Source: Amphiscolops sp. MND2022
Taxonomy: Eukaryota
DNA length: 64,000 nucleotides
Direction of reading: 5' to 3'
Assembly: GCA_964187785.1 (NCBI GenBank)
Contig: OZ076409.1
Span: forward strand, 29,700,001-29,764,000
Positions 1-26,334 of this stretch are shown here, in pieces (within the stretch, counting starts at the first letter, position 1; the number at the start of each line of letters is the position of its first letter). Both the position numbers and the translations under genes were made by a program. The notes under the pieces were generated by a model that did not search any database, was not told where the DNA came from, and saw only the letters and a list, made by a program, of their open reading frames with translations.

Positions 1-3000
1 ACAATTAAACCAAAAAATGAAGCCATTAAAAGAATCCCATCACCAAAAGAAAAGAAAGATGTTATGCAATTTTAGGCAGTGTAAACTTTTATTCAAAATT
101 CATTGAAAAACTGCATTATTCAAAACCCTCAAACCATTATATACCTTATTACATGGTGGTGTTAAATTTCAATGGACACCCGAATCAGAGAAAATATTTC
201 AAGACCTTAAAAACAAAATGACAGCAGAAACTGAATTAACCATACCCATTACAAAACATCCATTTTTCATAACAGTTGATGCTTCCTTAGTTGGTTGAGG
301 CGCAGTTCTATTCCAAATGAATGAAGAAAATAAAATGAGAGTTGTTTCTTACAATTCACGGATCCTTGATACACAAGAACAAAAACTTTCAACACTAAAC
401 AGAGAACTCCTCGCAATAATTTATGCATTACAAAAATACGAATTTCTCATTATTGGATCCCCTCATCCCATATACATCTTCACAGATCACAAACCTTTTT
501 TACACTGTTTTGCAAAAAAGGGAAACCTTAGCCCAAGATTTTATAGAGCACAAATGCAACTAACAAAATTTTTCAAATTAAAAATCATTCATACTCCTGG
601 AAAAAATTTAACTGTAGCAGACATGCTTTCTAGAACCTTCACAAAGGAACAACTTCAAATACATCAATTACGACACAAACAATTGCCACCTCAAAAAGAT
701 TTCTCTATCATGAAAGATAACCAATTCAAACCTGTACACTATTTAGTAAAACATGAATAAATCAAATATAATCAAAAAAATGATTGCCATCCAATTCTCG
801 CTGATTATGGCGACGACCAATTTTCCATTCGTATAAATAACAAAAGAGAAGACATTCATATAAAACCCTTATATTCTTTTTCTTTTCAATCCATTGTTCC
901 ATTTGAAACTAAGTACAAGAGGCCTACAAAGAATCAAACAGAATCACTCTTACAACAATCAACTGTCCTCAATGACACTGAAATTCTTAGTGATGAAGAT
1001 GAACCAAATCAATCCCAAAATATGAAAAATCAAAACACAAACATATTGAAAGAACAAACCCTAGCAATACAGTACCCCACTAAATCTGATTACTGTAATC
1101 AACAAGTTCCATTTTTTGATCCATCTTTCTTCAAATACACAAGATACTTTCATTATTTCTTCCTAACAGAAGATACTCAATTAACAATTGAAACTATAAA
1201 ATCTCAACAAAAACAAGACCCTGTATTACAAAAGGTTTATCATTGGTTAAAGACTAATGAAAGACCTTTACAAATAGATCCAACAATAGCAAGTAATTCC
1301 TTCCTATCAGTTTACTACAAACTCTTCAATCAACTGTACATCAACCATGATACAAAAATCATTCATATAGATTACCCTAACATTCATGATTCACACCCAA
1401 ATCAACAAGACAAAATATGTTTACCATTTAAACTCTTTCATGCAGTTTTCAATAAATTTCATGCACATGGACACTCTGGAATTATAATATCCAGAAGAGC
1501 TTTCAATCAATTTTTATTTCTACCATTTTTAAATAAATGGATGTCAATATTCATTGATGATTAAATTGAATGTCAACAGAACAAACACATTAATCAAAAA
1601 ATTCAAACAGCAACAAAACAAACATTTTCAGAAAATGCTTCATTTTTCGATTACCGAATATCAATGGATACAAAAGGACCTATAAATCCACCATCAAAAC
1701 AAAACTTATGCATTCATGTGATAGTAGACGCCTCCAGTCATTTTGTTGTAACAATACCTGTTAAACAAAACAAGGCTCAAAACGCTGTCAATTTGTCAAT
1801 TCCATACTACATCATTGGATTACTAAATTTGGACCTCCCATATATCTAGTTACAGACCGTGGTTCGGAATACATTAATTCTGAATTTGCAAACCTTTGTA
1901 CCACAATGGGAATCAGACATTCACCAAGAACTCCTTATGCACCATGGACAAATGGTTTAGTAGGAAATCAAAACAAAACCCTTGGAACCCATCTCAGACT
2001 TTTTCTACATAACACACCAGAAACCTGGTCTACCCAAGTCCATATGTACGCTTATGCACGTAATTCCCAACCACTTTCTGAATAAAATCTTTCACCATAC
2101 GAAATAGTATTTCATACTATACCAAGAATCCCAATAAACATTGAACTCAATCTTCAAAGAGATACTTATAGAAACTGCACTTCTCAATACTGTCAAGACT
2201 TACCACTTCATACACATTATGACAAATCAAATTTAAACCCTTTCTTCCATAAAATCTTATCGAAACCAATCCCACAATGGATTTTGGCTACTAAAACTGC
2301 TATGATACAAATAAATCACACAGTCTATGAAAACATAAAAAGAAATTAAATCATTTGCTTATTTCAATAAAACATTCAATAATCCAAGACCCTTGGACAT
2401 TGGTACTTTTGTACTAAAGAGAAAAATTCTCCATGTTCATTTTTCAGATAAATTGAAACCTCTAAGAATTGGACCAATTAAAATCAATAATAAAACTTCT
2501 GACATTACATATGAAATTGTTAATCAAGATGGTTACACTTCTCATATTCACAGAAATCATTTAATTCCTTATTACCCAAAAGAACCATTTATTTTTCCTT
2601 TCATACAACAATATAACCCGTATCCAAATTATAATGAAAATGATAATAATGACTCGAATATAACTGACTCGATAGAGCCTTTTGATTCTTTTTCTGATGA
2701 AGAACAATCAGTTGAAAACGAAGACTACACATTCATAAATTCCAATAAAGTAATCGATATACCATCCACAATTGATTTTAAGCCAGAACCATTTAACCAA
2801 TACTCCTCATTTCGATAGCAACAAAACAAACAAAAAACCAATAAGACCAACCCAGAAAATCAATATGATATTCATGACTACGATAACTATATTAATCCCC
2901 GAAGACACACCTATGGCAGATACAATTTGCACCCACAACCACGAAAAGATTATCGACTTTTCCTTGGTGAAAAGGACATAATTTTATTTTATCAAAAATC

Positions 3001-3025
3001 CTGCTGAAAGAAAGTCTGAGCTGAA
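1..3025 (+). pseudogene. pol: Gypsy pol (RT thumb, RNase H, integrase), disrupted by stops and frameshifts
   Basis: LGSVNFYSKFI (RT thumb); VDASLVG..GAVLFQ, RELLAIIYAL, IFTDHKP, GKNLTVADMLSR (RNase H); HAHGHSG..ECQ (integrase Zn finger); SMDTKGP, LVTDRGSEY, PYAPWTNGLV (core); KLKPLRIGP..YEI..HRNHLIPY (GPY/F). Confidence 0.95.
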
Positions 3026-4567
3026 TAATAACAGAGAGTAATCTGGAGAAAGAAACATTAGAAAAATAGTAAAAGAAATTGAAATTGAAACATAAACTGA
3101 AATATAAAATAAAAATACTTCAAGATTGATAGACATAGACATTCACCTGCCTCAAACAGAAATAACTCATCATTTGGTTCAACTCATTCATTCCAAACAT
3201 TACCTGAATATGCCGCATATCTAAATTCAGATACAGACATACTGGATTCCTCGTCCTCAAATCATAGCCAAATCTGCTCCATATTCTCCTGATAGGGCAA
3301 CAGTAACGCCCAACAATACACCCATACTTCAAACTCAAACATCAGTAATAACAACTCAATCACAAAATAGTACAACTCAACCACAATATACTCAACAAAA
3401 CCTACCATTTTTAGAAACAAATTCACCAACAAGTGACTCCTGTGATGAATCACTCACAATTCAAAACAATGTACAAAATACTTCGAGTATCCTAAACAGA
3501 CCCCCTCTTCCACCAATTCCTACCACTCGTGCTCCTCATATCCCTGATCCTAGCTCAGTTCTTCAGTACGTTCATTCTTGTCCACATAGGATACCAACTG
3601 CAACAAAAACACCTAGAAAAACTTCTATACCAACATTACCAAAGAACCTTGCCCTACCATCAACAAGTAAAACCCCATTAAAAACTATATCAGAACATAT
3701 AGTTAATTCACCATCTGAACTAAGTTCATTTACGTTTTCTCAAGTGTACCCAAGACTAGAATTAGACCGCCTACAATCAAGCACTACTTCTTCCTTAACA
3801 GACTTATATTACGAAGATAAAGACTCTGATTCAACAGCTAGTACCAGGGTACCACGACATAGTTATAATCTCAGATCTCAATCACGAAGAAATTCTCAAG
3901 AATTACAATCTTTAACTAGTTCAAGTACAAACTCAAGATTAGTTAGACAACAAGCACAACCCAGATCAGAAACTCCTTCTCTTTCTTCATCTCACCCCAC
4001 TATACTATCTGCTCTACCACTACCATTCCAAGTCACATCAGGATTTGATACAGCATCCCTTCTCTCAGAGATCCTCAAACTATATCAGATAGTGCAGCAA
4101 ACTTTTCACGAGTTTATTCAACTAGTTCAATACTATCTGATTCATCCATACAATTACCCGAATATTTTTTAGAAGAATATTCGAGACTTCCTACACCAAA
4201 TCTACACGAATATCCTATTCGTGTTAACTCAAAGATTATTCGCAGTCTTAACAAAGATCCTCGATACACAGTACTCCCAGATAGATTTAAAAACAATACT
4301 TCTCTTTCAAACCCAAGAAAACAAAGAGAACTACGAGGATTACGAGAAGATCAATTATTATTAAAATTCGAAGTTGAAGTTATATTCAACTCCTTAAAAC
4401 CTCATCCATTTACTCTTTCAACAAGAGTAGCACATAAAACAACTCCCTCACCATTTGTAGTCACATCAATATCTTATCTTTGTGACGCTGATTTACCAGA
4501 AATTAGAACAAGTCTTATAAACTTCTTTGATCCCTTCTCAGGACTAAACTATAGAACTATATTTTAA
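3012..4567 (+). pseudogene. ORF-X between pol and env: S/T/P/Q-rich N-half plus probable globular C-terminal domain, unknown function
   Basis: Fragmented reading frames (incl. ORF 3744-4172) continuing to TAA at 4565-4567, two nt before the env ATG; contains RHSYNLRSQ; start inferred. Confidence 0.6.
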
Positions 4568-4569
4568 CC

Positions 4570-7137
4570 ATGAAAAAAATACTTTTCAACACATATTGTA
4601 TATATAATACACATTGTTAACTCTACATCAGTTCCTAAAGTTGATACAACAAATTCAGAAAATCATATTTCAGAACAAGATCCAATTATTTTAAACCTTC
4701 TGGTATCCCATTATAATTGTGCAAAACAAACCAACTTAAGACAATTTAGCTTACTAAATGTTGAACCATGTAAACAAGCACCCTCAGATATACAACACAC
4801 AAAAACCCAAGCAACAGTATATGTTAGAGCAAAAGCAAAAAGAATCAAAGCCTCCAAATGTGAAGCATATATAAAAACTGAAAAAGTTTGGTGTTCACAA
4901 ATATTTTCATCTAGTAGACGATATGATCGTTTACAATGGGAATAAAATACATTAGAACATCCAAAAATACTTGACCCTATTGAATGTAAAAATATGATAA
5001 GATATTTAAACGCGACCGATAGTAAAGAATTAAACAATTACAATATGCAAAGTTCCTTCTCATTTTTTGATGATAGTGTTCATCAAAATAAAATTGAACA
5101 AGTTCAACAACCATTTAGAGTAAAAAGATTAAATTCTTGGCAAATCGGAACGTTCGTATATGATGAACAATCTCCAGACTGGATAGTTAACTTCACACTT
5201 GTTCAAGATGTAGAAAAGACAGAGAACATTTAATCACTCGAAAAAGCTGGAAACTCAGAATAACTAATGCTGAAATAACATATGATGATAAAAACAATCA
5301 AATGATTCACGATGGATATATGATACCCTGTTACCATTCGGACGGATTTTGTAACCCAACAACAAGAACCCCATACACATTAATATGGTTTGATGAAACA
5401 TTTTGTCTCATATTTCGATCACAAGAAGTCATTGGAAGAATGACAAGGATTAAAGACCGATTTTGGATAGAAAATGATCACTTCATCGAATCCTCAAACA
5501 TTACACAAACCCTTCAAAACGAAGGAATACAAGGAACAAAATATCCCAATGTCAAAACACCACAATCAACTGTAGACAATCCAAGTCTTTCTCAATTTGA
5601 GATATACCCAATTGCACAAACCTTTTGTGGGCAACCAGAACCATTATATTCAACACAATATGACGACATCTTTGTTACATACTTAGATGGTTTTGATATG
5701 AATAATGGGCAACCGAGACCACACTCAATAATAGAACAAAACATTAGTGGAAGAATACAATTTGATACTTCTAATCAAAAATATATATATTCCCAGCACT
5801 AAATGTATCAAATAATTTCGCCACCCTAGACTATGATGCTCATATCAATACAAAAATTGACTTCACAATAAATCACGTATTTAAATCTATGACAGTACAA
5901 GAATTAAATACTCTTCACACAGTATGTGAATTAGAAAGAACACAATGGTTAACAATCTTAGCTATGTCAGTTAAGAATCCTCAATTAACCGGTTTTCTTT
6001 TAACTGGAAGTCGTAATAACTTCCTCTATGTTGAAGGATCTACAGCATGGATGTATGATTGCCCTCATTTTATATCACCACTATACAAAGCAGATAAATG
6101 CTTTGATTGAATTCCCATACACTATAGAGAAACTATATTGTATGTAGACCCCATAACAAGACAAACTTTTAATTATGCAACACCAATAGAATGTGGAAAT
6201 AACCCGCAAAATATTATTGAATTAGACCCAGACACAGATGGCGGAATTTTTTTATGTGTTAACACCAGACCCGCTCAAAAGATAAGCACCACAAAGGTTC
6301 AAACATACTCAAATTAAGACAACAATAACACCCAATTCATTTACCGCACAAGATGCTGGTATATACTCCAATGCAGAATTAGATTAATTCTGGAACAGAG
6401 TATTATTCGCAAAACACTCAGATACAACTCTCCAATTACTCGGAAAATCATTAAGTTATGATTTCATTACAGTACATAATGAACAACACTCCCACACAGG
6501 ATCAAATCCTTATAATCATTTAGGGATTGGATTACATGATCACCTGTTAAACCTCTTACCACTTTTCAACCCTGACTGGTTCAGTCAAGCTTTCATCAAT
6601 TTCTTTGGATATCCATGTTATGTTCTAACACAATGTGGAATTTATTTCTCCACCTTTCTTTTCTTTAGAGAAGTTTTAAGTTTTCTACTTAAATTCTACA
6701 GAACAATCACTATAAAATATAGTCTCCAAAGCAACATTTCCGTTTTCAGTTCAATAGCCCATGGATTTTTTAATATAGTTACATCGGAAATGGTTACTGA
6801 TTTGAACAATACTGGAAAACGCAAACGGATATAAACTAAACACAAATCTACCACAAGTGAAAATGATAATATCCTGTTGTCCGACAAAGAATTACAAAAG
6901 AAAATGAGAAGATACTCCGATAGTGACTCCCTTTATTTACCTCCTAAATATACAAGTAAGAATTCAACCCTTCAATCACCAAAAAGGACACACCCCAGTA
7001 AAATTAATGATATTAGTTCACCTCAAATTTCTCAGGCTTATGACCCCATAGTACAAAATGTAATAGCTTTACCAGAAAGCCCCGCAAAAGTCTTTATAAA
7101 ATTCAACTCCTTCCTAATAAGAAAAATATTCAAATAA
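4570..7137 (+). pseudogene. env: Envelope glycoprotein, chuvirus-like/class III fusion protein, disrupted
   Basis: LVSHYNCAK..RQFSLLNVEPCK; KCEAY..VWCS; IPCYHSDGFCNP..TLIWFDETFC; VCELERTQWLTILAMSVKNPQL..EGSTAWMYDCP..ADKCFD.IPIHY..YVDPITRQTFNYATPIECG; hydrophobic C-terminal segment (FFGYPCYVLTQCGIYFSTFLFF) then cytoplasmic tail. Confidence 0.8.
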
Positions 7138-7208
7138 AACAAATTAAACCCAAAGTTTAAAATATCAACAACCAATAACTCCACAATTTAACTTCCATTC
7201 TACCCAAA

Positions 7209-7443
7209 ATGTCTCACTTGGACAAGTTGCCCACCTCAACTCAACCAAACGACTTCACTTGGAACTTCACACCCCACTTGGCAAAATTCGTCGCTCCCTG
7301 TAAACAGCAAATTACAGAAATCACAGACGTTTCTATTCCAGGAATAGATGCCACTGTAATTGTTGGTGTTTTGACCCACAACTAATATTCCAATATTGTA
7401 AGTACAATTGAAACTTTTATTATCAAAAATCTAAACAAGTGAA
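7209..7443 (+). pseudogene. Short accessory ORF-A downstream of env
   Basis: ATG 7209, MSHLDKLPTSTQPNDFTWNFTPHLAKFVAPCKQQITEITDVSIPGIDATVIVGV, internal stop at ~7384. Confidence 0.4.
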
Positions 7444-7550
7444 CAAAAACACTTAAAAAGGATTAACACTTTAATTTGTTTTAACTTAACTTTATCATTT
7501 GTTAAACAAAAGTATTATTTTAGCGCTACAAATGCAAGCAAGTTAAAATA

Positions 7551-8837
7551 ATGGAATCCTTGCCCGAAATTGATGTAGTTAACTCTACTTCATCCTAATT
7601 GCTTGCATCCCCTTTGAATAAAACTATACAACAAAATGTTAACGAAGATAATAATTCATCTTCACAAGAACCCATAGAAACTATCCCAGTAGAACAAATT
7701 GACCATTTCAACGAAAAATCTCAAAAAAGAAAATATCCAGACATAATCGCCGATAAACCTTTTATGGAATCTGGTGCCTGCCCTCCTTTCATAAAGCCAT
7801 TAAAACAAGATGAAAATCGAGATTGTGATTTAATTCCCATCTTATCAACAAGACAATTCACATTTCAATCCCATCTAACCTCTTTGTATATGGTTCCAAC
7901 GAAATACAAATTCATTATCAGAGAATTCAAAAATGATTATCATACCTCAATTGCTTCAAAATTAATCACCACATTTGATTGGTGGTTAAATAATAAAGTG
8001 TAAGTTTTCTCATTTCAATACAAATTCCTAAGACCATCTCCATATGATCTTAGAACTGAAGAGAACGATGCTAATTTCTTGCCATATCAAATAAAGAAAG
8101 CTCATCATATTACATACCAGAAATTCCTCCAATACAAAGAACCTGAAAATTATATCTTCTTCAACTCGAAATATACCTCACTTTTCACTTTCAACTCAGA
8201 ATATCTAATAGATCATACCAAAATAAAAAGAAAACTCAGAAATTATGACCCATTGAAACAAAGATTTCGCTTTCTTCCAAATGAGAATCCAAAAAGACCA
8301 ATCATAGTACCACAAGAATATCTCATCTTGAATGATGACTCGCTCTTACAAGAAGATATACCTCAATGTATATCAGACCCTCTTCCTCCAATTCAACCGA
8401 TAGCTTTCCAACCTCTTAGAGACTGTGAAAAATCTTATTACTACGCCTTAGCAAAAAAGGGATACTCCCATAATGAACTATTATTCATCATTTCTCATCT
8501 CATCTCAGTTCTTACAAAAGGAAATACTAAAGAACACAAAAAGACAAATCAAGAACTTCCAAAGAAATTAGCAATTGACACTCCTAAACCAGAAAGTTTT
8601 CCACCCACTGAAGAAATGCAAAAATATAAAGAAATAATGGAAATTTTAAAACCATATCATAACCCAAAAAAGGATATCCTCATTACAATCGCTGCTATTG
8701 TAAATACTCTTGAACAAGCCCGAGATCTAATGCAAAATATGGCGTTTGATACGACAAGAGTTAGCCAATCAGCTTCGTGTATACGCACATCCTTAGATGA
8801 AATCAACTACATATTTGAAAATATTCAACAATCTTAA
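7551..8837 (+). pseudogene. Accessory ORF-B (~429 codons), unknown function
   Basis: ATG 7551 and ORF pieces 7599-8003 and 8079-8837 share one frame broken by single stops; helical-looking C-terminus. Confidence 0.65.
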
Positions 8838-8988
8838 CTGGTAATTATGGAATAAAAGCTTTAAAATTTTAACACTTATCTCTTAATCCCTTACCAACCT
8901 TGTTAAAATAAATTGAATTTACCTATTTATGCTTGCTATGCATGATTATAGTTAACCAATAGAATACATTTATTCCAGTATAACATAA

Positions 8989-10120
8989 ATGTTCACTGCG
9001 GACAAAAAAACTTTTAACAAAACTCCTCAAATTTTTCAACTTTTGATGAACCGATTTTAACAACTTTTGATGAGACCCCAAATGAAAGATATTTAAATGC
9101 TCTTCAAAAGACTTCCAAAATACGCCATCTTAATCCTTAAATTTAAAAAGATAGAACACAATAAAATACATCATAAAAATGACGAGAAAACAAATTTATT
9201 TAAAAAGGAAATTTAATGTGAACAAACTAATCTATTTTACGTGAAAATCGTCAAACTTCTTTCTTCCATCAACTCACCGATTTACTGCCTCTCCAAAACA
9301 ACAAATCTTCCAAGATTATCCATTACAACTTCTCCATTTCAACCACGATGACTTCTCAGGATACATCCAAAGTTGAATTTCCAATTGCTTCCACTCGACT
9401 CCGATCTCTTATTCTGAAGAAACATATATCAACGTTATATACCCAGCTTACACACGAGAAAAAAGCAGACCCCATTCTAACACGAATGATTCTCTTCAAC
9501 ACGTTCCAAATATTTCAAATCAACAAAATAAACTTTGAGCAATACCTTAAAATGCATAATCACCCTGATAAATTCATTCAAAAAAGTGACTCCATAACTC
9601 AGACGGATTATACTACTATCCGACCAAAACCCTTTCCCAGAAACTTATCCAATAGAATGCGTACCCCAATAGAAAAGAAAGATCTAGTACAATATTGGCC
9701 ATCGGATGACAACGATTCCACCGATGATGAACTTCAAAAAGACCCCCCTGAAGCACTTCTTAACCAAAACTCTCATTACAAGACCTATACTTACGTCGCC
9801 TTTTAAAGTAAATCCCGATTGTTACAGCACAACATCAGCTGTCCGGACTGGACTCCCTAATATTGCCATCTGAGCAGTTTGCAGTGACGACTCCAAAAGA
9901 CGATTCCACACCCTTCCAAGATGACACCATCAACTCTTCCATGCTGACCCCACCATCGAATCTTCCAAGCTGATCCCACCATCAATCCAGCAATTCCAAC
10001 AACCAAGAAGATCCAAAAAGATGATAATGTGAATAGCGACAAATAAATGAGAAGACAATAGAAACATTGTACTTGATAGAACTTGAAAAACTTTCAAAAG
10101 ATAATGACGATAATTTTACT
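8989..10120 (+). pseudogene. Accessory ORF-C, fragmented, unknown function
   Basis: ATG 8989, ORF 9348-9806, acidic/Pro-rich continuation to ~10120; same strand and composition as the element. Confidence 0.5.
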
Positions 10121-10134
10121 TTAATGTGTATATA

Positions 10135-10790
10135 ATGAATACAAATAAAACTTCCCCCCGTATTTGTTTGCCCTAATTTACAATGATATTTATCCCATAC
10201 CGATATTTAATTGCCCACGTTTCAACGAAAATTTATAATTTTTCGGTGCTTTTCTTTCCCATGAATAAAAAGAATTCAATCATATGTTAACAAAAACCTT
10301 TTCAAAATTTCAACAAAATTAGCTCAAAAGTTGATCAAGCACATTGTTCAATTTCAAAGCCCACTTTCTCAAAGATTTCAACAATTCTTACATAACAAAC
10401 CCGCCAAAGTTGAAAACAACCTGAAATCTTTTCAGACAGTTTTCATACTTGATGCAAAAATTTTTAAACAACAATTCTCATTGACCCTTTGACCTTTAAC
10501 TCATATGATGTTTGCTCACGATTTGTCAAATGCGAAGCCAGTTCAATAGATTCAACAAAGGCATAGAACCGAGCCGCTACGAGTTCAAAAACTTAGGCCC
10601 GAAAGAATAGTGAAACAGACCACTTTGAAAACTTTGAACTATAGTCGCACATATGAGGTCTAATGAAGTTGTCACATATTTTGATAGACAACTCGAGGTC
10701 TACCATTGAGTCGAACTCTCACCAACCTAGAAGACACTTATGCCAATCATCCATCAAATAAAAAATTGAACTAGCTGAAACGCTAAAAAC
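10135..10790 (+). pseudogene. Possible accessory ORF-D, heavily decayed
   Basis: Coding-like fragments between ORF-C and the PPT; boundaries approximate. Confidence 0.3.
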
Positions 10791-10856
10791 ATTTGAACAA
10801 AAAATTTTTCCACTTTGTTTTATTCATTTGATATTATGTAAAATTTTAATTTATTT

Positions 10857-10935
10857 AAAAACCCGGGATGGATGTACTGACCTACATTAATAACCAAAAG
10901 TATTTAGATGTTTATAGATTGTTCTAGATTGTACA
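10857..10935 (+). promoter_or_regulatory. Putative polypurine tract and first ~63 bp of element A 3' LTR
   Basis: aaaaacccgggatgga followed by TGTA at 10873; cut at 10936 by an unrelated LTR. Confidence 0.55.
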
Positions 10936-12150
10936 TGTTGTGACCATCATCACTCTCACAAGGTTCAATTGAACTTTCTCTGAGGTGATTATTATAGTAA
11001 CTCTTCGTAGAAATAATTTTAGGAAAATCTACACGTGTTTTGCGGTTAGTTTCACAATTCTGAGCCATTGGGTCGTTTTTGCTCAAATGCGGTCCGTCTG
11101 ACCTAGGGTCACATTGCTGGGCCATTTGACCAATCCTGCTCGAATGCAGTCCGTATGACCGAAGGCCCCATTTTGTGTTTGGTTTTAGCTGGTCTGAATG
11201 CATTTTCTATCGTTGGAAGTATCTTTTCTGCTATAGCCGAGTTAATTACTTCTAACATCTGAGCATTTATGCCAGATTTGAGTTCCTTCAATGGTCTTGA
11301 CACTTGGGACAAAATGTAGGAATCTTTTGTTCTACAGGTTTCCTAATTTAAACCACTATTTTCACTAAGTTAAAGCTTGTGTAAAACCTGAATTCCTGAT
11401 CATGATGGTTTAATCCTTGATCCTGTCTATTTGACCTTAGGCCCACTTCATTCTCACTGTTTTTTTCTTGTACTTCATAGTTATCCCTTGGATCACTGTC
11501 TAACATAACATCCATGTTTTGATGGTCAGACATTACGTCTGATTGCCTGGAAAGCTTTTCTTTTGCTTCCTGTTTCTTTGTTGAAAGCAAAACAATAAAG
11601 TGATTCGTTTACAACAGTGAATTGACAAAGTCAAAATATAGCAAATTGATCAATAATGAGTATAGAGTATCGATAGTATCAACAATGAATTTTTCAGTAA
11701 TAAGTTCCAAGTATATATAGATTAAACACCATGACATTCACGATTTTGGTCATCAGGTAGCTGAATTTGAAGTGAGATAATTCTAAAATTAGCTTTGGCC
11801 CCGTTATTAGGTCATCAGTTTCTGAAAATAGATTAGTGCACCAGACATTACGTCATTTTGGGATGGGAGATATAAATAGCATCAAACAAGTAGCGTATTA
11901 ACTTGAATATTACTAATTCTAGATTCAAAGCAACATTTCATGTAGCGGTAGCATCAATATTTAACAACTCACTAATTCTGACCGAGCGTCAGCATGATTG
12001 CAGTGAATGGCTTGTACTGAATTCTGATTGGCTGGAATGTGTTTGAACCGTGCGTCAACTTGACTGTATCATTGATTTAGTTGAACGCGTTTCCTTGTTT
12101 CTAGCCCATTTTACCAGCTATTAAAGCACCTTTCAACTTGTTTTACAGCA
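10936..12150 (-). mobile_element. LTR of family B (~1.2 kb) containing a decayed gag-like N-terminal ORF (11590 towards 10936)
   Basis: Minus-strand termini TGCTGTAA...TCACAACA (imperfect inverted repeat); ORF pieces LSTKKQEAKEKLSRQSDVMSD.. and ..LEVINSAIAEKILPTIEN; no TSD found. Confidence 0.55.
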
Positions 12151-12899
12151 TAATTACGAATCTGTTACACTCAAAGTATCTGCCGCATTGTCGATGTTTT
12201 AGAGTTACTAAGCAAACATTAAACAAAATAACATCAAAGTAAGTATTTGGAATAATTTAAGAAAACAAATTGCCGTCAAGTTGACCTTCGGTCAATATTA
12301 GAAAATATTACATGTTGATTAAAATCACTATTGTACGACTTTTAACGGTATAATTGCGTATCATTTTGTTGTTTGAAGGCTCCAAGAGGCTTAAAATGTT
12401 TCCTATTTAGGCAAGACTCTCGGTTTAGGGGTACTTTGATTGTTATCCTGCAAAATTTGGTAGAATATGCCGTAGCAGGCGGCAGCCTGCGACATATGAA
12501 GCTACCAAAGTACCCGCCCAAATCTAAAAATTTTCATAACACGAGACAAAACGGACACACCATCAAAACCTATAAACAAAAAGTTGAAGAATGCTGGTTA
12601 GCTTTCGTGCGTTGCGATGATCGACGTTAACACGACTGACGAAATAGCTGATAAATTGTAGAAAATGACTGACTTTCGAAGAGTTTCTGGAACTCGGTGC
12701 AGAATGGAAAACAAATTACACGTCAACTAGTTTTTAGTCGGCACTCTTCGTAGAAAACGCAGACTATAGAACTGGCTTTCCTTTTTTTAAGACCAACGAG
12801 GTGACTGATTTTATAAGCTTTATAAGCTGTTTCTGCCACTAATTGCCATTAAACTCGTAATTTCTACTGCCACTTGTAATTTTGAGGTTTGTTTGAGAT

Positions 12900-13290
12900 C
12901 TGCGAAGCAGAAGGACGTGGGTTCGAGTCTCGCCATTGACCAAAACATTTTCTCAATTTTTTATTAGTTTTTTGACGTCTCCAAAGGGTCCCTCTTCAAT
13001 TTTCTGCAACAAAATGGATGTTCAAAAACTCCCAAAGGATCCCTTTTTACAATTTTTTGGCGTTATGTGACTTACAGGAGACTTCATAAAATAGTGTTCT
13101 CAAAATGTTTCCTCAATGGTTAGTTTTTCGAGGGGTTTTCTTGTCTCCAGTTGCAGAAGAAGTGATTTCCGAATCTTATGCGTATCCCTTGAGGTATAAT
13201 TTGGCACTGGAAAATTGATGAAATTTCAACAAAAGAGTACTATTGCATATGTAAAAAACTTTTTTGAATGTTGCCGGCTTGTTTAATCTT
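12900..13290 (+). repeat. Dispersed short non-coding repeat with tRNA-like B-box (SINE-like); relatives at 27430-27815, 35240-35487, 38440-38660, 57262-57698
   Basis: Shared gaagcag..cgtgggttcgagtc near the 5' end and ..ccggcttgtt / gccgacttg..cttgtt at the 3' end. Confidence 0.55.
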
Positions 13291-13299
13291 GCTTCGGTG

Positions 13300-13885
13300 T
13301 GTTATGTTGAAAGTATCACTTCGTTCAAAACAGTGCTCCATTGAAATGCTTCGACAACTTTGTGGAGTCAAATGTTGACACCAGAGGAGAAATGGAAGGG
13401 ATATCGAATTCGAATGAAGTAGCTAAGACAATGAAATTTGTTTGCTAAGGTTTGGCACACCTATCAATTTTGGGGTTGAAGCTCTGACACAGTTACAATG
13501 TTTTTATGTCTCGAAAACGTTAACGCAGCTAACATTAACTAGTTTAAAGCATTTGATTTTTCCAAGTAGCAACTGTACAAGATTGAACACCAGAAATCCA
13601 TAATTTTTGGGTTCTTCTTTGTGCATTATGCCAAAAAACACGTTTTTGTCAGTCAGTGTGTATTATTAAATCAAAGAGTAGACAGACTCACTATATCGCA
13701 ATAACTTAAGAAGTAAGACTGCATGATTGGATTCCATTGGAAATCAAAGAAGAGTGGTTATCTCCCGAAGATCTGATTGTACAGACACCTTAATTGTCAA
13801 GGCAACTAGCCAATTCTCTTCCTATACTTGCTGCTGCACGGAACACAGGGTTTATGAAGAGCGCCAACCTTTTATCTAAAAGTCA
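13300..13885 (+). pseudogene. Relic of protein-primed family B DNA polymerase (Polinton/Maverick-like)
   Basis: Decayed motifs PLKCFDNFVES..EVAKTMKFV, IEHQKSIIFGFFFVHYAK, VDRDSLY-like (DTDSLY) after frameshift, downstream TCC..H..E. Confidence 0.65.
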
Positions 13886-16785
13886 ACTAATTTGGGTCTT
13901 TCCAGTAATACAAACTGTTATTATGATTCTCACACTCAAGTTCGAGTTTCGCAGCAAACTGATGAACAAAAGAACACACAAGAACATTGTAGGCGGTCCA
14001 GTGTTTAAAAATAAAAGACATGTCGAACCAACAGTTGGAGAGAAGGAGGAAACTTGGGGATTCGACCAGAAGACGAATCTCAATTTCTTTTGCGTGCTGG
14101 CAGAGGGCGAAATTACACTTCCCGAAAAATACAGAGAGGAAGGAAACAACCGGTACGTGTTGTTAGAGAAATCCCTCACTGCCCTAGCGGAGCCGCATTT
14201 TTAAGGTCGAACGGTGCTTTGTTCATACATGGCAAATAAGAGTCGTCTAAGAATTGTTTGTAGATTTTGTCAGAAACCACAGTGCTAGGCTCACATGTTG
14301 ACATGGCAACTGCTGATACAGTATGTTTTTTTGGCAGAGACGAAATGCTTGCAAATATCGATACCGTATTTTTCATCATTCTGCTTCTGAGATTTCCGAC
14401 ATCCAATCCAGTGCTCAACACTGCTGAATACGCAAAATCCTGTTGAAAAGCTGAAAAAGTTGAAAAAGTTGAAAATTGTCTGGGAGTATGACTCGTTTCG
14501 TTAGTCCATCAGTGAATGATCTGATGGGAAGAAATTCGATGGAATTCATGTTCGTTAGTTTGAAAGAAATTCGTGAATCAACAAAAAGTGTTATCACAGC
14601 AGGGTAATGCCTTGCCTTGTTTAACCGAACTCTCACGTACCTTCCAAGGTGTCTCTTTTGTAAAATTTGTGTTGGTTAGGAATATATCGAAATTCTTGAG
14701 TCCGTTACTTGTACTTCAAGTTTTGACCATATACTTTGAAATACCATTGCTTATATTGGCCTGAATTGTGTATATTGATGTACAATTTGTTCAATTTGAA
14801 CGGCGTATTGTTCAAATAGGTGCCAGAAGGTATGTTTCAGAAAACGACAATGAATTCCGAAACTGCAATGGAGCCCAATTTATCTTTTAACAAAACGGCC
14901 GTATAAGGATTAATACAAAACTTGAGAATCAACATACTGAATAAAATTATTAGGATTGGTTTTGTGCATTTAAATGCAGTTTAACAACTCCAACGTAGAT
15001 GTGAGCTGTATTCTGCTTCGTATTATTTCTCTCCCGAGCTATTTCATGGTTTATAACCTATATCCTCGCTTGGTTTCAAAACATTCACAAGAAAGACAAG
15101 AAATGGTGAAAGTTCAATCAAGTACAAAACTATTTTCAGTGCATTCCCTTATTGAAAAGAGCGGAGTCCTGGTAAAATTTTGACGAAAAAGAAGCGACCG
15201 CGTACAATAGTGAAACCGTTTGCATAGTGTCATGGCCCGCTCCCAGCCTCAGCCGATGCACAACTTGCCAGAAAGGAATTCATAAGTTCGCAAGTAACAG
15301 AACCCAGGAAAGAAATTAATTCTTCTTCTTCACCCTGGAAAGAAACATTGAAAACAACATCTAAACCGGTAACCCCTACGGAGTTCAAATCTGAAATGAA
15401 ACAATCTCGCGAATAGGTCCAGTGAATTGTATTAGAGTAATAAAATAGTTGTCAAGGCTCACCGGAACTACAGTCCTGTAATTTAAGCAAATAATCACAA
15501 CGTAATAGCCACGCCGCGCGATAGGTTTGCTATTCTATATTGCCAATCTAACGGACCAATAGCGTCGCTTTTTGACTGAAGTATTTGCGGTCATGCCAAT
15601 CAGAACGATTTTATGACGTCACTAGCTAAAGAATTAAAATTATGCTCCACTGCTTGGCGAAATCCCTTCGTCAACCGCTTTCCAGCTATAGCTAATCTTA
15701 ATACACACGGGGACACTACAAAGCGATTGTACTATTGTGGCTGCGGAAATGAGAGCTCAGAGGCGGTTCAAAAGGAAGTTTTCATGAGAAATTCATATAT
15801 ATTTAAGGTTTTAGTTGGGTTCCTAATTGATAAATCCTGTACTGTAAGATGAGCCGTGAAACTATTGCTTGCTTTTTTGTCTGAAAATTAAGTCTCCTTT
15901 TCATCTCAAATGCCATAATCATACATGAAAAATTGTTTTCTTACAAAGCTCAGAACTACAGATGAACATTGCAACATGCCTTCAATCTGACACAATAGGT
16001 AATCAGAACTGCAACGTAAGGGCATTGTTGTGTGAATGGATGTTTTCCCTTTTGAATACAACCTTGTAATGACGTTTTCGTCAAAGTGTTCTAGGATGAT
16101 GAAATTGTCTTCATCGAATGCCAACTGGAGCAACACCATGTCTATGCAAATAATCGGTGCTTTGAATTAGTATTTCTTAAAGTGTGAAGTTTTCTATAGG
16201 GAAAGTTTCCGAGTTCAACCAAAAATAATTGGAATGTGTTATTCCAGCATCTTTTATTGCTCTTCATCAATAATTTAGTACTTTCAATTCTGAGTACTTT
16301 TGCTTCATTCTAGTTGCGTCACTATTTTTGCTAGACATACAATTGCATCGATCTTCCAAATTCCCAACTTGGAAATTGACTAATTGTTCATGCCGGTGTG
16401 CTCCCGTTGATGAAAAAGTTAAGTAGACTTTTATATTGCCGCCGTTTTGGAGTCCAAACAGGAAGTGTATTTGCCTGAACAAAATGATTTCCACAAAGAC
16501 CACGACTAAACGACGCGACTAGGATTTTCGATACCTGAAGTTTAGACGCCGGACTGAAATATTATAAGTCAATTGGGGTTATGTATGAACAAACCCAAAT
16601 TTTATGATACCTTGGAATTTTTAGGTGAGGAACCAAAGAAGCTAGAAAAGTATATATATGTAAAACTATGTAGAACTTGCCCTTAATCGTTTAGCGTTCA
16701 CACATATCGTTAGTCAGACGTTGAAACCAAACTATTTTCCTTTGAAGATTTTAATCTTTCAAAAGACCTTTCCTTCATTTGAAAA

Positions 16786-19700
16786 ATGACAACTAGAAAA
16801 TAAATGAGGAAAGCAGTTGAAGAGCTAGCTTCTCGGAGCCTAGAAACTCCCATAACTGAGAATAGCCAAGTCAAAACCCTCGAGTAAATCACATAGATCC
16901 GAGTAGCAAGTCTGAGTGAATCACCTACAGTTCACCCTGAAACTCTAGACGAGATCAAAAAACCTCTCAGAAAATAAGTCACGTCCGAACTCACTAAAAT
17001 TCTGGCTGGGAACCAAAAGAAATGCTAAAGTTGATGGTACCAGTTACTAAACAATCTAACAATCACCAGAAAACAGAATGCTTCGAATTGGAGACGGGGA
17101 AGGTTTTTCCTACAACTACATCAACAACGATAAAAAGATAAAGCGACTACTCAAAATAATAATCCGCAAACTAGTCGTAACATGGAGCCAGGAGTCCTCA
17201 GCGACTCTAAGAAATTGAGTACCAAAAAACGAAAACCAAAATGCCTGACGAGCCAACAAGCTAAGGACCGAGCAACAACGTCAATCAATTGTTCTGCCGA
17301 AAGCTCTAACAGTATCACTACGTGTCTTCTATGGTAAGTCTGGAAATTTTAGATTGTTTGAGGTCTTATTCAGAAATAACATCGAAATGTATCCTCCCCT
17401 CACTGAAATACAGAAAAGAAACTATTTTCACACGCTACTTCGAGGAAACATGCTCTAAGCGTATTGCAACTTGGATTACGCGAAAAAAAAATTGAAAAAA
17501 TAATAACGGCGTTCAAACAACGCTTTGGGGACTTCTAATCCACTGTCAAAGCAAGATGTGAGTGGAACGCGCTCCACTTTGATCCAATGAAACAAAAACC
17601 ACACCAGACCAGTTCCTAGACGCACTACAAAAAACCGCAAGAGAAGCGTTCGGACCAGGGGCGCTAAAATTCATAGTCAAAGCGATTCACGCGAATACGA
17701 TGGATCACGTCAAGACAATCCTCAACTGCATGTACCTCGGAGACAAACAATTTAACGACATTGTACTGCATTTGGAACAAGATAACTCGGATTGGGTGCG
17801 CCAGAAAAAACCACATTGGTACCGCTGAACGCTGTTGACACAAACTCGCGTAAAAAAGAGCCAAAACCAAAGAGGCTAATGTTTCCACTGTGACCGATAC
17901 GGTAACTTTTAAGCCCAATGGCGCAAATTTAGAAAAGATCGATGTCTTAAGACCAGAGCCAAAATTGGCGACGAAAACTCGGCTGAAATCCAGAAGCCCC
18001 AATGCGACATTGGTGAGAAAACTCAGAAAACAGAAAACTGCAGGGACGGAGCAAATGACCCCAGGAAAAAGAAACGACACTTCGCAATCCCGACACACAA
18101 AAGTAGAGAAAACCCTCTGCTCAAAACTGAAACTCAGAATAAAAAAACGCCGCATGTACGCTTCAGGGAAAGAGTAGACGCAAGGGCATACACAATCGAA
18201 GACCCCTCAAATCACTTCAGATAAGACTTCATTACTGAGTGCAATGAAAATCCTAGACATTAGAACGTCCGAACAATTTTGCGCACCAACGCGAGACATC
18301 AAAACAATCCAAAACAGCTCTCTGAATGGATAAACGAATCCCTTAATACCTACACGACTATAAACGCCTCCTGTCGGAATCCAAAACAGACAGAATTTAT
18401 GCCTATGACGTAGATTACCGATGCAATCCCTGGGACGAACCAGAATCTACGATAGCGAGTCCCTCTTGTTCAAAATCCACAACCAAAAACCCTCGAAGCC
18501 AAACGAAGTAAAAACAAAAATACCACAACCTCCGTCACGAATCCTGAAGAAGTCGAGAGCACACCCGATCAATTCCGCCATAACCTCGTCAACCTCAATA
18601 AACATAACGGAAATAGTCTACGTGGAAGACGAATCACCATCATTACACAAACCAGAGGAACGAACTACTGATATCTTCTCTCCTCCTCCACCTCAAACCG
18701 CACCTGTTACTCAACACTCTACCAACAATGATGATGACACATCGGAAAAAAAACCAACTCATCTACCACACGACCTAGACGCCATGAAAAAATTCATCCA
18801 ACACGACAAAGAAGACGTCTAATTTCCGTTGTTGTCAGCTATCACTCAATCAAAACCAAAGCCAAAATCGAAGTGTTAATAGACTCAGTGCGTACATCAA
18901 TGCCATTTGCAAAAGGGATACAGGAAAAATAAGGCATGAGGCCCAACACAATCCGAACGGAGAGCAAACACACAATACCGATGCAATCCACCCGGATCAT
19001 CCACTCGTCAATGTCTGTGACCAATGAGCACCCAATAACTTATTGTAGCCCACAGCCAGAGATAAACGGGTCGCCATCAAAATAGCCAATACCACAGATT
19101 TACTTCATACAGTAACACCAAACACCAAGTTGGCTGAGCTTCACATCTTCAAGCCTTACGTAACGAAATCTATACGACCAGTCGACATAACAGCACTAAA
19201 CCTACTAACCAATCATGACGACGTTGTAACGTATGTCAACGCACTCATGCAAGTCCGGAAGACAATCAAGAAAAGCTCTGGTTCCCAACCCCCGAAATCC
19301 CTGGCAATGAATCCAAACACTCTCCGATACAACAACGGAACCTCAAGGAATTACGAGCACTGGCTGGACTGGAAAAACTTCATGCCAAAGAGAACAAAAA
19401 ATCACACACCGAATTTCTATCCATCTTCAAGTGGAGCGATTTTTTTATTCACTGGAGGAGACCGTGGGAACCTTGAATCCATTTTAGTCGATTTCAACGA
19501 CATCATCGAACGACACCGACTAGACATCAGAATGAACACTCAATTCAAAGTCAGCTTAACGACAAAAGATGACAAACCCGTCTACATCCAAAGTTTACCA
19601 GTCCCGATCAATCTCAAAACAGATCTGACAGTAGAACTAGCACCGGTACGAATCCTTACCATGCTTTTTATCTCCACGCGCAACGCAAACCTGACGAAAA

Positions 19701-21780
19701 TTGAGGCTACTGGTGGATCTACGGAAGTCATTGCACTCATCTTGGATGACAACGTTAACAACAACCACTCCATCAGCACCCTCTCAGATGCAGCTCAACC
19801 CCTAGCAAGAAAAAAAACTGTTTTTTAACTTGACCGATTTGAAGCAAATCACTTCCTTCAAATGGCAGATCGGAAATCAGTAGAACTCTTCGCTTTTAAT
19901 TTTGCTAAAAGGACGTTCGCCTTCCGCCGACTAGCCAAACCACTCAGCAGGGCCTTGTCTTCATCCTCAAGTTTCATGCGAGAATACCTGAACAAAGTTT
20001 TTCAAACAGACAAGTGCGACCAATACGTCGACGAGATTGGGATAGCTGCAAACCAGCGGAGCTATTGATAAGGAAAATCCGAGCAGTCTTCAAATGCATC
20101 AGAAAAGCTGGTCTAAAACTGAGCCTTGGAAAATGCTACTTTGGCGTAACCCAGGTCACATTCCTTGGCCGAAAAATCACCGCTAACGGATTAGTACCGC
20201 AGGCTCATGAAATCACAAAGTTTCTGTCAAAAGTTCGATTTCAAAGTCAACAAGCAAGTACAGAAATACATCGGCTCTGTGATCTACTACAGAAACTACA
20301 TACCAGAAAAGCTAATCGGAATGTACAAACTCCTGAAAACCTATGCGATAATCAGCATCTCCGAAGAATCATTGGAAAACTTCAAAGCAATCAACGCTAG
20401 CCTAGCGGAAGCCTGTGGACTCGCACCACCACGACCAGGACACAAGTTTTTGTGCATCGCGATACGCATCGATGATACAAGAAAACAACGAACTGAAAAT
20501 ATTGTCAAAGCGGAAGACATTCGCCCCAGTAGCATTTGGATCACGTATCTTCTCACCTTACCAACTGAATTTGTCAATATACTGCAAAAATTACCTTTCA
20601 AAATGTCACGCTTTCCTTGGAAACAGCCATATTCTATAGCAAACTACCATACCAACCCTAGTAAAGACACACAAGAGATCTTTAACGAGATTGTTTCAAA
20701 CAAAAACCACACCCATCTGCTTTGTGAAACGCCTGCTACTGCGTCTTGCAGTTCAAACTTCACATTTATGCCAGTAGCAGGCTCGCAATTACAGCAGCGG
20801 AATTTTGGTCCAGAGTGGAACTAACTCCAGAGGAAAAAGTGCAACTAAAACTATGTGACGATATACTAACAGCACCAGTAGAAGTCAACCTTCAACCAAC
20901 AGATGTCGCATATTAGGATCAGTTCCTCTTTTTCTCAAACGAGGAAGGAGAATTAGAACGAGAATTTTTTTCCAGAAAAGAACGCAGTAAACGAAAGCGG
21001 GCAACACGTTTTGTTAACCAAGGTAATCGAAGTAATCAAAAGACCACTCAAAACTGCAGTCTCCTCGTTTGGTGCAATTAAAGAAAACGCGCGCATCAGG
21101 ACTGAACAAGATGCGGACCATCTCCTCAAAGCATTGATACTATGAATACTCCACGAAGAATATGGAAGAATATGACAAACACCTACTCAAAACCGAACCG
21201 AGAAGAAACCTCTTACGTCACGAAGAGAGAGTTATCATGAAAGATGGAGTTTCACTGAGGAAACAAAACAGCAAAAACTGAAATGTAACGAATCGCCATA
21301 TATTAATGCCGAAACGTATAGTCCCAGAACTCTCATCTAATCTGCATGGAAAAACAATAAAACACCCTGTAACAACAAAAATTATACAAGAATGCAGAAC
21401 GAAACACTACTTCCCGGCAAGAACGCAACTGCAACCCCTCTGAAAATAAAGGATTATTGCCACGTTCTCAATCCGAAAGCAGACAATCAACTAATGAATT
21501 TTGCATCCAATCGATATTGGGCGCCCAATCATCGATTACCTGACGTAACAGTCAGACCGGAAAATCACCTTCCAGATCCTGAGATTAAAACAACTCATGA
21601 CAATTGGTACGCGCATGCTTGGGAAGTCGAATTCGGAGAAGTTGTGGTCAGAGCATCAACGGAAGAGCAGCAAAAGGAAGCCACAATCACAGAAATTGAA
21701 GACAACGCTGACGCTACAACGGAAAGCGAGATGGAGATAAAACTTCCTCCGACAACAAAACGTCGTTCAACCTAGTCTGA
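16786..21780 (+). mobile_element. Decayed Ty3/Gypsy element C: LTR 3' end at 17182, PBS-like 17183, gag-PR-RT-RH-partial IN
   Basis: ..gtcgtaaCA|TGGagccagg; gag (LFRNNIEMYPPLTEIQKRNYFHTLLRG); protease VLIDS.AYINAI (~18875); RT HRLDIRMNTQFKVSL, FAFNFAKRTFAFRRLA, QYVDEIGI, KCYFGVTQVTFLGRKI; RNase H FAPVAFGSRIFSP; integrase core deleted. Confidence 0.9.
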
Positions 21781-21962
21781 GTAACTACGGCAGACCTTCG
21801 TCAAACTCAAATCTGAACAAAAACAAACGGCTAACAAAACTGAACCGAAACGGCAACGTCATTTGTTTCTGTTTCTCTTCTATTCAGACAACTAAACTAC
21901 CATAATAATAAAAATCGAAACCACAAATAGCACAGATGAAAAAATAACTAACTAAATGCAGC

Positions 21963-25728: not shown

Positions 25729-26334
25729 CTTCAAACAGGAAAACACAACAGTCTGAATAAGAAAAAATATCAGAAAACTCGAGCAATATAGGAAATATCA
25801 TTTTGAAACTGTGACTTCATATTGGCGCAATGCTGTCAATAGAAATTGATGACGTCATAATGACGTAGCTGAAGTGAAAAGGAAGTATCGTTTCGTTTCG
25901 TTTCAGCAAATCACGGCCCAGACAGAAGCAAAACGCTTCCAAAATGAAAACGAACGGACATGGGAGGGAAAATTAGCCAAAAGGAAATCATCAAAAGCTA
26001 CGACAAACGGAGAATTGAATTCTCCAAAGGACGTTCAAACGATCAAAGAAAGAAGTTGCTTCAATTTTGAGAATTTCCCGCGTGAATCCTACAGAATGAA
26101 CGGAAATGTTTTCGTATTCGACATTTTTTCAGACTGAGAAGAAAACAATGCACAGAGCACTTCTATAAAACCGTTGCCACTAAACCTAATAAAAGCAATA
26201 AATCTGAGCGGATTATCCACGAGAGCCACGAAGTGCAGTGGAACGTGCCTGGACAGCTCAGTTTCTACCTCCATATCCGAACATTCTCCAAGGAAATTTG
26301 GCGTCGACACCTTTCTTCAACTACCGATTGGGAC

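Follow-up and report, generated by a model that had tools for sequence, protein, structure and literature searches.

The window, by which we mean the whole 64,000-nucleotide stretch of DNA that was analysed, opens with a decayed and doubly truncated copy (positions 1-10936) of a high-copy Ty3/Gypsy family. On its 5' side this copy is cut some 1.3 kb before the window begins, where homology to other copies ends, and its 3' end falls within the LTR. The features that we recognise, all on the plus strand, are these.

1..3005, + strand: decayed 3' portion of pol with RNase H and integrase; RT_RNaseH at 317-757 (E=6.5e-17), with rve and H2C2 recognised in a young copy
3113..4567, + strand: ORF-X, Ser/Thr/Pro-rich; 489 codons in young copies, dN/dS 0.23-0.30; frameshifted in the window copy
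4570..7137, + strand: env of the Monjiviricetes-fusion type; broken in the window copy, 858 aa long in a young one
7317..7397, + strand: conserved non-coding block inside a previously proposed ORF at 7209
7398..7403, + strand: predicted splice donor GTAAGT, in 18/18 young and 28/33 old copies
7518..7523, + strand: predicted splice acceptor TTTTAG, 27 nt 5' of the B ATG; AG in 18/18 young and 33/34 old copies
7551..8837, + strand: orphan accessory gene B with a soluble product of 430 aa; recognised by dN/dS, intact young copies and a sister-family homolog
8841..8846, + strand: donor-like G|GTAA, 3 nt past the B stop, in 17/18 young and 33/36 old copies
9226..9240, + strand: predicted branch point and acceptor 5' of C; AG in 17/18 young and 29/33 old copies, degenerate in the window copy
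9348..9806, + strand: accessory gene C, orphan, soluble; 152 aa in the window copy, 158 in young copies
9807..10864, + strand: 3' non-coding region, including a previously proposed ORF at 10135-10790; shared stops, frame-breaking indels
10865..10872, + strand: PPT-like GGGATGGA, read directly and kept in most of 30 copies
10873..10936, + strand: first 64 nt of the 3' LTR of about 270 nt, where the window copy is truncated

The family has evidently been copied recently. Its young copies are 17.9-18.5 kb long with LTR pairs that are 98-99.6% identical (mismatches at 2, 1, 3 and 6 of 268-272 sites), and all four young copies with both ends carry TG...CA LTR pairs of 268-272 nt and 4-bp target-site duplications. 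A TGG-starting motif directly 3' of the 5' LTR, common to the sister family, is the candidate PBS, and the PPT-like tract of the window copy is only 8 nt long. In a young copy the Pfam domains run Retrotrans_gag, RT_RNaseH, H2C2 and rve, and the best PDB match of the RT is Ty3 Gag-Pol (E=3.4e-48), with foamy at 1.6e-17 and MLV-type sequences at about 1e-12; judged by these matches, the RT is Ty3-like and outside the retroviral RT lineage. The trees that we built cover families of this genome only, and the open-licence literature yielded no description of the family.

The env of the young copy is an ORF of its own that lies 3' of pol and has homology to a viral fusogen (PF24664, E=2.6e-24, 85.6 bits with a cut-off of 27), and its 3' part has a dN/dS of 0.18-0.20; the window env gives weak piecewise Pfam matches only, and a comparison of env with PDB sequences gave no match. 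Ahead of it, ORF-X is without a Met codon and is depleted in ATG. ORF-X and env would probably share a separate message, on which X would start at a non-AUG codon or a spliced junction, and the env start would be reached by scanning through the ATG-poor X.

What follows env is the heart of the matter. The preliminary description saw a cassette of about four accessory ORFs here, packed between env and the PPT, and its general setting holds up well: env ends at 7137 and the PPT-like tract lies at 10865-10872, the G-poor bias of the plus strand extends over the whole region (GC skew of -0.16 to -0.41 across 1-11000, near 0 beyond), and the distance from the end of pol (about 3005) to the LTR (10873), put at some 7.9 kb, measures about 7.87 kb. 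The region is also present family-wide, with 55 matches (40 scored of 1,747 candidates), most of them across the entire query and at 77-91% identity. Within it, two of the proposed genes survive, one of them only in part, and dN/dS shows B and C to be under purifying selection throughout the family.

Gene B has a dN/dS of 0.08 (0.05-0.12) and 0.16 (0.12-0.21) against the young subfamilies, falling to 0.05-0.08 in its core, whereas off-frame controls give 1.3-4.3. It is full length in 16/18 young copies, and the two premature stops of the window copy are private to it (0/34-35 old and 0/18 young copies). A short NLS-like basic motif (KRK/KKK) stands ahead of the conserved core, and neither B nor C has a TM segment (maximum KD19 1.1-1.2). 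B shares 35% identity with its sister-family counterpart, B2, and has homologs in 461 clusters at E<=0.001; two of these, P0328 (multi-copy and full length) and P0241, come from other genomes, since their best matches in this one reach just 31-33% and 45-50%. By these comparisons B is a new protein family, present in several genomes. It has no Pfam assignment, even when 109 aligned members are searched, and no PDB sequence match; neither B nor C received an Atlas assignment, and word-index searches returned close relatives only among the matches listed (120 of 233, 298 and 255). A weak, recurrent MJ1010-like match to B (best E 0.0012, 7/109 members) was not accepted.

Gene C, which lies within the ORF formerly drawn from 8989 to 10120, has a dN/dS of 0.08 (0.05-0.13) and 0.21 (0.11-0.34) against the young subfamilies and is full length in 14/18 young copies. 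No relative was found outside its own family, and no Pfam or PDB sequence match. We considered lengthening C in frame at its N-terminus and rejected this: the distance from acceptor to ATG shifts phase even among young copies, and dN/dS there is about 0.6-0.9.

The remaining ORFs fail, and per-ORF dN/dS, so clear for B and C, is weak or near 1 for them. The ATG at 7209 occurs in 0/33 other old and 0/16 young copies, and its frame ends after 58 codons; the 8989-10120 frame contains 19 stops, with its ATG in 21/34 old and 0/17 young copies, and codes in 9348-9806 only; and that of 10135-10790 contains 11, with an ATG in 4/30 old and 0/18 young copies, while all frames of this last stretch carry 4-15 stop columns common to the subfamilies and are disrupted by indels. 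In place of short spacers there is non-coding DNA of about 0.4, 0.5 and 1.05 kb. A defender of four packed ORFs could point to the 7209 frame, with dN/dS of 0.49 (0.28-0.95) and 0.60 (0.41-0.88) in two comparisons, to one frame of 9807-10134 (0.45 and 0.40, with confidence intervals below 1) and to one frame of 10135-10790 (0.60, 0.41-0.92, in one comparison). However, a few such intervals are expected because many frames were tested, the ATGs are private or rare, indels disrupt the frames, and shared stop columns number 2-3, 2-4 and 11-15 in those respective frames. For the longest ATG-ORFs the median length is 3-34 codons between env and B and 44-48 codons in the 3' region, and the signal at 7209 traces to a block conserved at the nucleotide level. 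The four-ORF reading is largely refuted, and we give it next to no credence.

That block, 7317-7397, has a 30-nt identity of 0.8-0.9, against 0.46-0.76 in most adjoining windows of the env-B gap, and shows 3 synonymous versus 7 amino-acid states, where B shows 71:19; the possibility that 7317-7370 is coding was rejected. It is likely to be a small leader exon or an internal-promoter element. The distal 0.65 kb of the 3' non-coding region has a divergence of about 0.24-0.31, below the dS of 0.75 in B and 1.4 in C. Rfam gave 0 matches over the region, no strong RNA structure that could serve as an RRE analogue turned up (best z -2.3, 60 windows, two copies), and no minus-strand ORF is conserved.

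How might B and C be expressed? Conserved donor-like and acceptor-like sites stand before both genes, and spliced subgenomic mRNAs are therefore likely for each. The stretch from the acceptor at 7523 to the start of B is free of ATG in 50/52 copies, and the acceptor ahead of C has a 30-nt identity of 0.90, compared with 0.43-0.58 immediately downstream, although its exact hexamer is found in only 20/33 old copies. Conservation alone cannot single out splice motifs, because 201/1,555 6-mers from non-coding DNA satisfy the same filter. We think it quite probable that a donor, at 7398 or in the 5' leader, joins 7523 for B or 9240 for C, and that the first ATG after the acceptor starts the gene.

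Related families offer a mixed but instructive comparison. The sister family, 18.9 kb long, has the same order of pol, X, env, B and a second ORF; the donor-like G|GTAA motif follows the B2 stop too (3/3 copies), and TTTTAG stands 2 nt ahead of the second ORF's ATG, while its env-B gap showed neither a GTAAG donor nor a clear TTTTAG beside the B2 ATG. Among the copies listed for distant families that share the env, the first post-env ORF (p1) is Met-less and opens directly after TTTAG in 4/6, and the other 2/6 have YAG 3-6 nt before an ATG. Homology between B and p1 is a lead only: hhalign gives an ungapped match of 47-48 columns (P 0.013-0.018, probability about 3%), and the p1 profile scores B2 at -0.1 bits and does not report B, with shuffled 99th percentiles at 1.9-2.9. 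The slot of C turns over, being occupied in the sister family by an unrelated protein, with no similarity to C, and in the distant families, whose second ORF after env is a TRAF/MATH gene (Pfam E 1e-22 to 4e-10), by that gene.

Our favoured explanation, which we regard as an even call, is that the post-env stretch forms the 3' accessory part of an env-carrying Ty3/Gypsy element of about 18 kb, with two orphan genes that are likely spliced, and that B is likely a nuclear regulator, CERV- or Rev-like, which raises the level of full-length RNA. With a genome of 18 kb and several splice sites, the element would still need to export its unspliced RNA. B, being soluble, with an NLS-like basic motif, a beta-rich conserved core and a helical C-terminus, could bind the element's RNA, or chromatin, and form oligomers, working in the nucleus to boost the output of the full-length RNA. 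The narrower proposal, that B exports or regulates unspliced element RNA by such binding and oligomerisation, seems to us rather unlikely as it stands; counting against an export role, the fold leads, themselves non-significant, favour Tudor-type chromatin readers over RNA export. C may be a fast-turnover host-interaction protein, because of what other families hold in its slot.

Those fold leads bring us to the strongest competitor, which we consider unlikely: that B binds chromatin as a transactivator or an anti-silencing factor of the Tas/Tat kind, with a Tudor-like barrel at about 229-259, perhaps having an internal promoter at 7317-7397 as its target. Structure prediction, which the preliminary description had recommended, gave AlphaFold2 models of B of low confidence (mean pLDDT 33 with 38 close sequences and 44.6 with 109) and no significant fold match, with no Foldseek hit at E<=0.001 in PDB or viral structures and no VIA-align Z>=5; such failures, from low-confidence models, are no demonstration of a new fold. 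In the folded piece, strands 169-196 (B about 229-256) span the most conserved motif, local pLDDT being 53-57, and PHF1, PHF19, MTF2 and RDM15 chains make up 11/44 of the Foldseek PDB rows listed, mostly over some 30 residues at an rmsd of about 1.1 A. We take the short PHF chains to be Tudor domains, and the top three Atlas matches are LIN9/DIRP clusters, LIN9 holding a Tudor domain as well. Against this, every Foldseek E exceeds 1, the Atlas score of 0.75 is under the lead threshold, and any three-strand meander can fit 30 Tudor residues, so that a Tudor-like fold in B is a weak lead. Internal env promoters are known in Tor elements, according to the relevant passages of PMC4402516.

Less likely again is the idea that B and C work in the cytoplasm against the host's innate immunity or small-RNA defence and do not regulate element RNA. 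The TRAF/MATH genes of the distant families with this env type suggest it, as do the MATH_TRAF_C domain that the Burro section of PMC6431247 reports from planarians and the variability of C's slot; yet neither B nor C is TRAF-like, and B, with its strongly constrained core, shows no arms-race divergence. Least probable of all, B might be a structural, matrix- or nucleoprotein-like env partner that was acquired, together with the glycoprotein, from a virus with negative-strand RNA, for it adjoins a Monjiviricetes-type env and presumably resembles the nucleoproteins of that group in size, but the 109 aligned members match no Pfam viral family, and the distant families with homologous env lack B as such, offering at most the weak 47-column similarity.

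To return to the nuclear-regulator reading of B, its functional model, by analogy, is CERV of the C. elegans element Cer1, likewise a Gypsy element with an orphan protein 3' of pol; CERV has about 500 aa and is encoded by a spliced mRNA (PMC10309623). Cer1 differs in lacking env and in encoding just one accessory protein, and B is likened to CERV by layout. This single-protein case is the Gypsy precedent that we found in print, whereas accessory-protein gene regulation is a hallmark of lentiviruses, deltaretroviruses and foamy viruses. In foamy viruses and lentiviruses accessory genes lie between env and the 3' LTR. Our element shares with complex retroviruses such genes kept by selection, a large genome (foamy-like fish ERVs reach 17 kb, as given in the text of PMC6431247) and predicted alternative splicing; it differs in its Ty3-like RT, an env of another class and accessory proteins in which homology went undetected. 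The earlier suggestion, a layout like that of complex retroviruses and accessory genes that are novel, thus stands for two post-env genes plus ORF-X, minus the count of four, and its idea of spliced or subgenomic RNAs has indirect support in the conserved donor- and acceptor-like sites. For the transactivator or silencing suppressor that it envisaged, the basic NLS-like motif and the Tudor-like hint are weak leads towards a role in the nucleus. Its remark that typical Gypsy elements carry only gag-pol(-env) overstates the surprise, post-env extra ORFs being known in LTR elements (PMC6431247).

If the proposal is right, a high-copy, recently active Gypsy lineage that combines env and conserved splice signals with three or more accessory genes under selection would represent an independent origin of the complex design. 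We would go further only tentatively, to an undescribed 'complex' Metaviridae clade of env-bearing Gypsy elements of about 18 kb, at thousands of loci in this genome, which might have evolved a lentivirus- or foamy-like programme independently. This would comprise a non-AUG gene read before env, post-env regulators that derive from a single ancient new domain (B, p1) and are made by alternative splicing, a membrane micro-peptide in the leader, and a slot in which decoys of host signalling, TRAF for example, can be exchanged.

Other invertebrate elements share parts of this layout. Planarian Burro, as outlined in PMC6431247, is also a giant Gypsy with mononegavirus-like env homology, but it exceeds 30 kb and has these domains, MATH_TRAF_C included, in one polyprotein with env between gag and pol, where we see separate ORFs around a 3' env. 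Oikopleura Tor elements are Gypsy-like with a pol-env spacer and a subgenomic env RNA; a multi-gene accessory region is absent from Tor as described in those passages of PMC4402516. The 'ancient errantiviruses' with HSV/gB-type env (Chary & Hayashi, PMC13524379) likewise have gag-pol-env order, multi-copy young insertions and an env related to negative-strand-virus glycoproteins, the gB class having been seeded with chuvirus-like glycoproteins according to the main text, in which 'accessory' and 'splic' are absent ('accessory' appears twice in the longer version). Unlike those elements as presented there, ours has the 1.5-kb X between pol and env and two more genes after env, a layout that the non-insect screen in that text is likely to have missed because it set a pol-env gap of <=1000 nt and regions of <=10 kb.

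The stretch between env and the PPT almost certainly holds two real genes, B and C, and not the four accessory ORFs that the preliminary description had placed there, so that its idea of novel accessory genes stands in part while its count does not. The evidence is an alignment of 54 copies of this Ty3/Gypsy family (14 duplicate loci dropped), in which pairwise Nei-Gojobori dN/dS was calculated across four groups, two of them young (12 and 6 copies) and two old (22 and 13), L049 being left out; intervals come from a codon bootstrap, and pairs are not independent. Between the two young groups, and then between the first of these and the old copies, dN/dS is 0.08 (0.05-0.12) and 0.16 (0.12-0.21) for B, 0.08 (0.05-0.13) and 0.21 (0.11-0.34) for C, and 0.20 and 0.18 for the 3' part of env; off-frame controls give 1.3-4.3. 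ORF-X, between pol and env, is also selected (0.23-0.30). B is full length in 16/18 young and 4/35 old copies, C in 14/18 and 6/32.

Genes around env
ORF-X: window 3113-4567, L074:1532-3001, L118:1291-2652; 489 codons in young copies, without Met
env: 858 aa in young copies; PF24664 Monjiviricetes_fusion, E=2.6e-24 (Pfam)
B: window 7551-8837; 430 aa in young copies
C: window 9348-9806; 158 aa in young copies

In the window, the stop-to-stop frames after env are 7179-7385, 7599-8003 with 8004-8837, 9231-9806 and 10265-10492, and reading the four ORFs first described onward from each ATG meets 2, 2 (besides the terminal one), 19 and 11 in-frame stops. The second of them is gene B itself, and the third (8989-~10120) survives only where it encloses C, its 8989-9230 portion giving dN/dS of 0.80 and 1.03. 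The first fails: its ATG at 7209 is found in 0/33 other old and 0/16 young copies, and its frame has 2-3 shared stop columns and dN/dS of 0.48 (0.17-2.06) and 0.49 (0.28-0.95). Nor does the fourth hold, with its ATG at 10135 in 4/30 old and 0/18 young copies, and dN/dS across the three frames of 0.60-0.99 and then 0.76-1.08, with 4-15 shared stop columns. A frame at 9807-10134 (0.45, 0.40), where the alignment is poor and 2-4 stops are shared, was not counted as a gene; the stretch could conceivably hold a short exon.

As a DNA query against its own genome, 7200-10880 gave at least 55 matches (40 scored of 1,747 candidates), mostly full-span, so the region is part of the family rather than an unrelated insertion; B as a protein query gave 7,751 candidates, 96 of them scored. 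The window copy (1-10936) is a single LTR element, G-poor on the + strand throughout, as had been noted; it retains the first 64 nt of its ~270-nt 3' LTR, and at the other end it breaks off ~1.3 kb upstream of the window, where an unrelated Gypsy element (L031:3000-8600), itself split by another insertion, adjoins it.

Eight young copies were examined over the 3' 10 kb, six of them also over the 5' part. The four in which both ends were measured span 17,858-18,490 bp; their LTR pairs show 2, 1, 3 and 6 differences over 268-272 sites, and each copy sits between 4-bp target duplications. Their order is LTR, ~1.9-kb leader, gag-pol, ORF-X, env, ~415 nt, B, ~520 nt, C, ~1.05 kb, PPT and LTR. Compared with Pfam, a young copy matches Retrotrans_gag, RNase H, integrase and Monjiviricetes_fusion, with no credible match for X, B or C, and the top PDB match of the RT region is Ty3 Gag-Pol. 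In the leader, immediately 5' of gag, lies a 37-aa hydrophobic micro-ORF (L082:3168-3281; two young copies, one old), reminiscent of the small membrane ORFs of MDG1-group elements (PMC11952523).

A sister family (~18.9 kb, same layout) is 72% identical in RT, 53% in env, 30% in X and 35% in its B counterpart, B2 (E=2e-61); its second post-env ORF (298 aa) is unrelated to C. In neither family does X contain an in-frame Met. Its out-of-frame ATGs are also few, 2 against 4.5-8.6 expected here (P 0.054/0.0025) and, for the sister, 0 against 3.5-6.2 (P~0.002), with no such depletion in env, B or C, a pattern consistent with scanning across X to env. Read by eye, conservation of X starts at an ATT codon (CTG in the sister); having A at -3 and G at +4, this codon is a candidate for non-AUG initiation.

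B and C are probably made by spliced expression, to go by the predicted signals below.

Predicted splice signals
Acceptor-like TTTTAG, 27 nt 5' of B: AG in 18/18 young, 33/34 old copies
Branch point and acceptor motif, ~107-116 nt 5' of C: AG in 17/18 young, 29/33 old
Donor GTAAGT, window 7398: 18/18 young, 28/33 old; ends block 7317-7397, conserved at the nucleotide level

In all young copies the interval from acceptor to start is free of ATGs for both B and C, and a donor-like motif 3 nt past B's stop is common to this family and the sister. Since 201 of 1,555 non-coding 6-mers are equally conserved, the case for splicing is made by motif and position, and not by conservation alone. Spliced or internally promoted subgenomic RNAs have precedents (PMC4402516, PMC10309623). 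The leader also has a candidate micro-exon (L082:~2460-2495), where TTTCAG, resembling an acceptor, lies 25 nt from a donor-like GTAAGA; young copies and two old ones retain both motifs.

More distant families, which a genome-wide Pfam scan for the same env type brought up along with the sister family, are 43-52% (RT) and 25-31% (env) identical to this one; both trees pair the window family with the sister (RT 99/100, env 100/100; effectively unrooted, with a long-branch warning). They carry several ORFs 5' of env, including 2-4 small orphans, some paralogous to one another, and, 3' of env, a small ORF (p1) and a coiled-coil/TRAF-MATH gene; in one family there is a single ORF of 519 aa. In 4/6 copies shown, the first post-env ORF of these families is without Met and opens directly after TTTAG; the TAG is the frame's own bounding stop, but a conserved frame that lacks Met must either begin at a non-AUG codon or be joined to an exon further upstream. 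The TRAF/MATH gene (L115:5657-6409, L116:5475-6467, L120:5719-6723; L129 and L130 by position; Pfam E 1e-22 to 4e-10; N-terminal part coiled-coil-like) is possibly a host-signalling decoy; from this gene and the env type, the host is presumably an animal. Extra ORFs 3' of env, and MATH/TRAF in giant Gypsy elements, have precedents (PMC6431247); a literature search among open-licence papers listed no env-bearing Gypsy element in which three orphan genes under selection surround env, and supplements could list related elements.

The N-terminus of B looks disordered; after KRK at 61 (KKK in B2) comes a conserved core at ~107-260 that peaks at G229-P256, and the protein has a helical C-terminus and no TM segment. 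By analogy with CERV, the accessory protein of the C. elegans Gypsy element Cer1 (PMC10309623), the preferred reading, held with low confidence, is that B acts in the nucleus to regulate the RNA of its own element; the main rival is a chromatin-reading transactivator. Weak leads for the fold suggest a Tudor-like meander, the structure predictions being of low confidence. A B-core profile reached 461 clusters among 1.84 billion representatives (many fragments among the 150 listed), two of which, when tested, proved absent from this genome. A motif spacing without gaps is common to B and p1, but no score between them is significant, and C has no relative beyond its own family among the matches listed.

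Elsewhere in the window, a second decayed LTR-type element (~17000-26000, + strand A-rich, pol-like fragments at 19049-21775) has no detectable similarity to the family's RT and is flanked by a ~5-kb duplicated segment (11806-17182 and 26335-31838, 14.5 kb apart, 78-100% identity). Nested inverted repeat arms at 41272-42053, 95-98% complementary, are probably a foldback/MITE element, and 52990-55663 holds a LINE-like element, assigned by eye, with endonuclease/RT frames in fragments.
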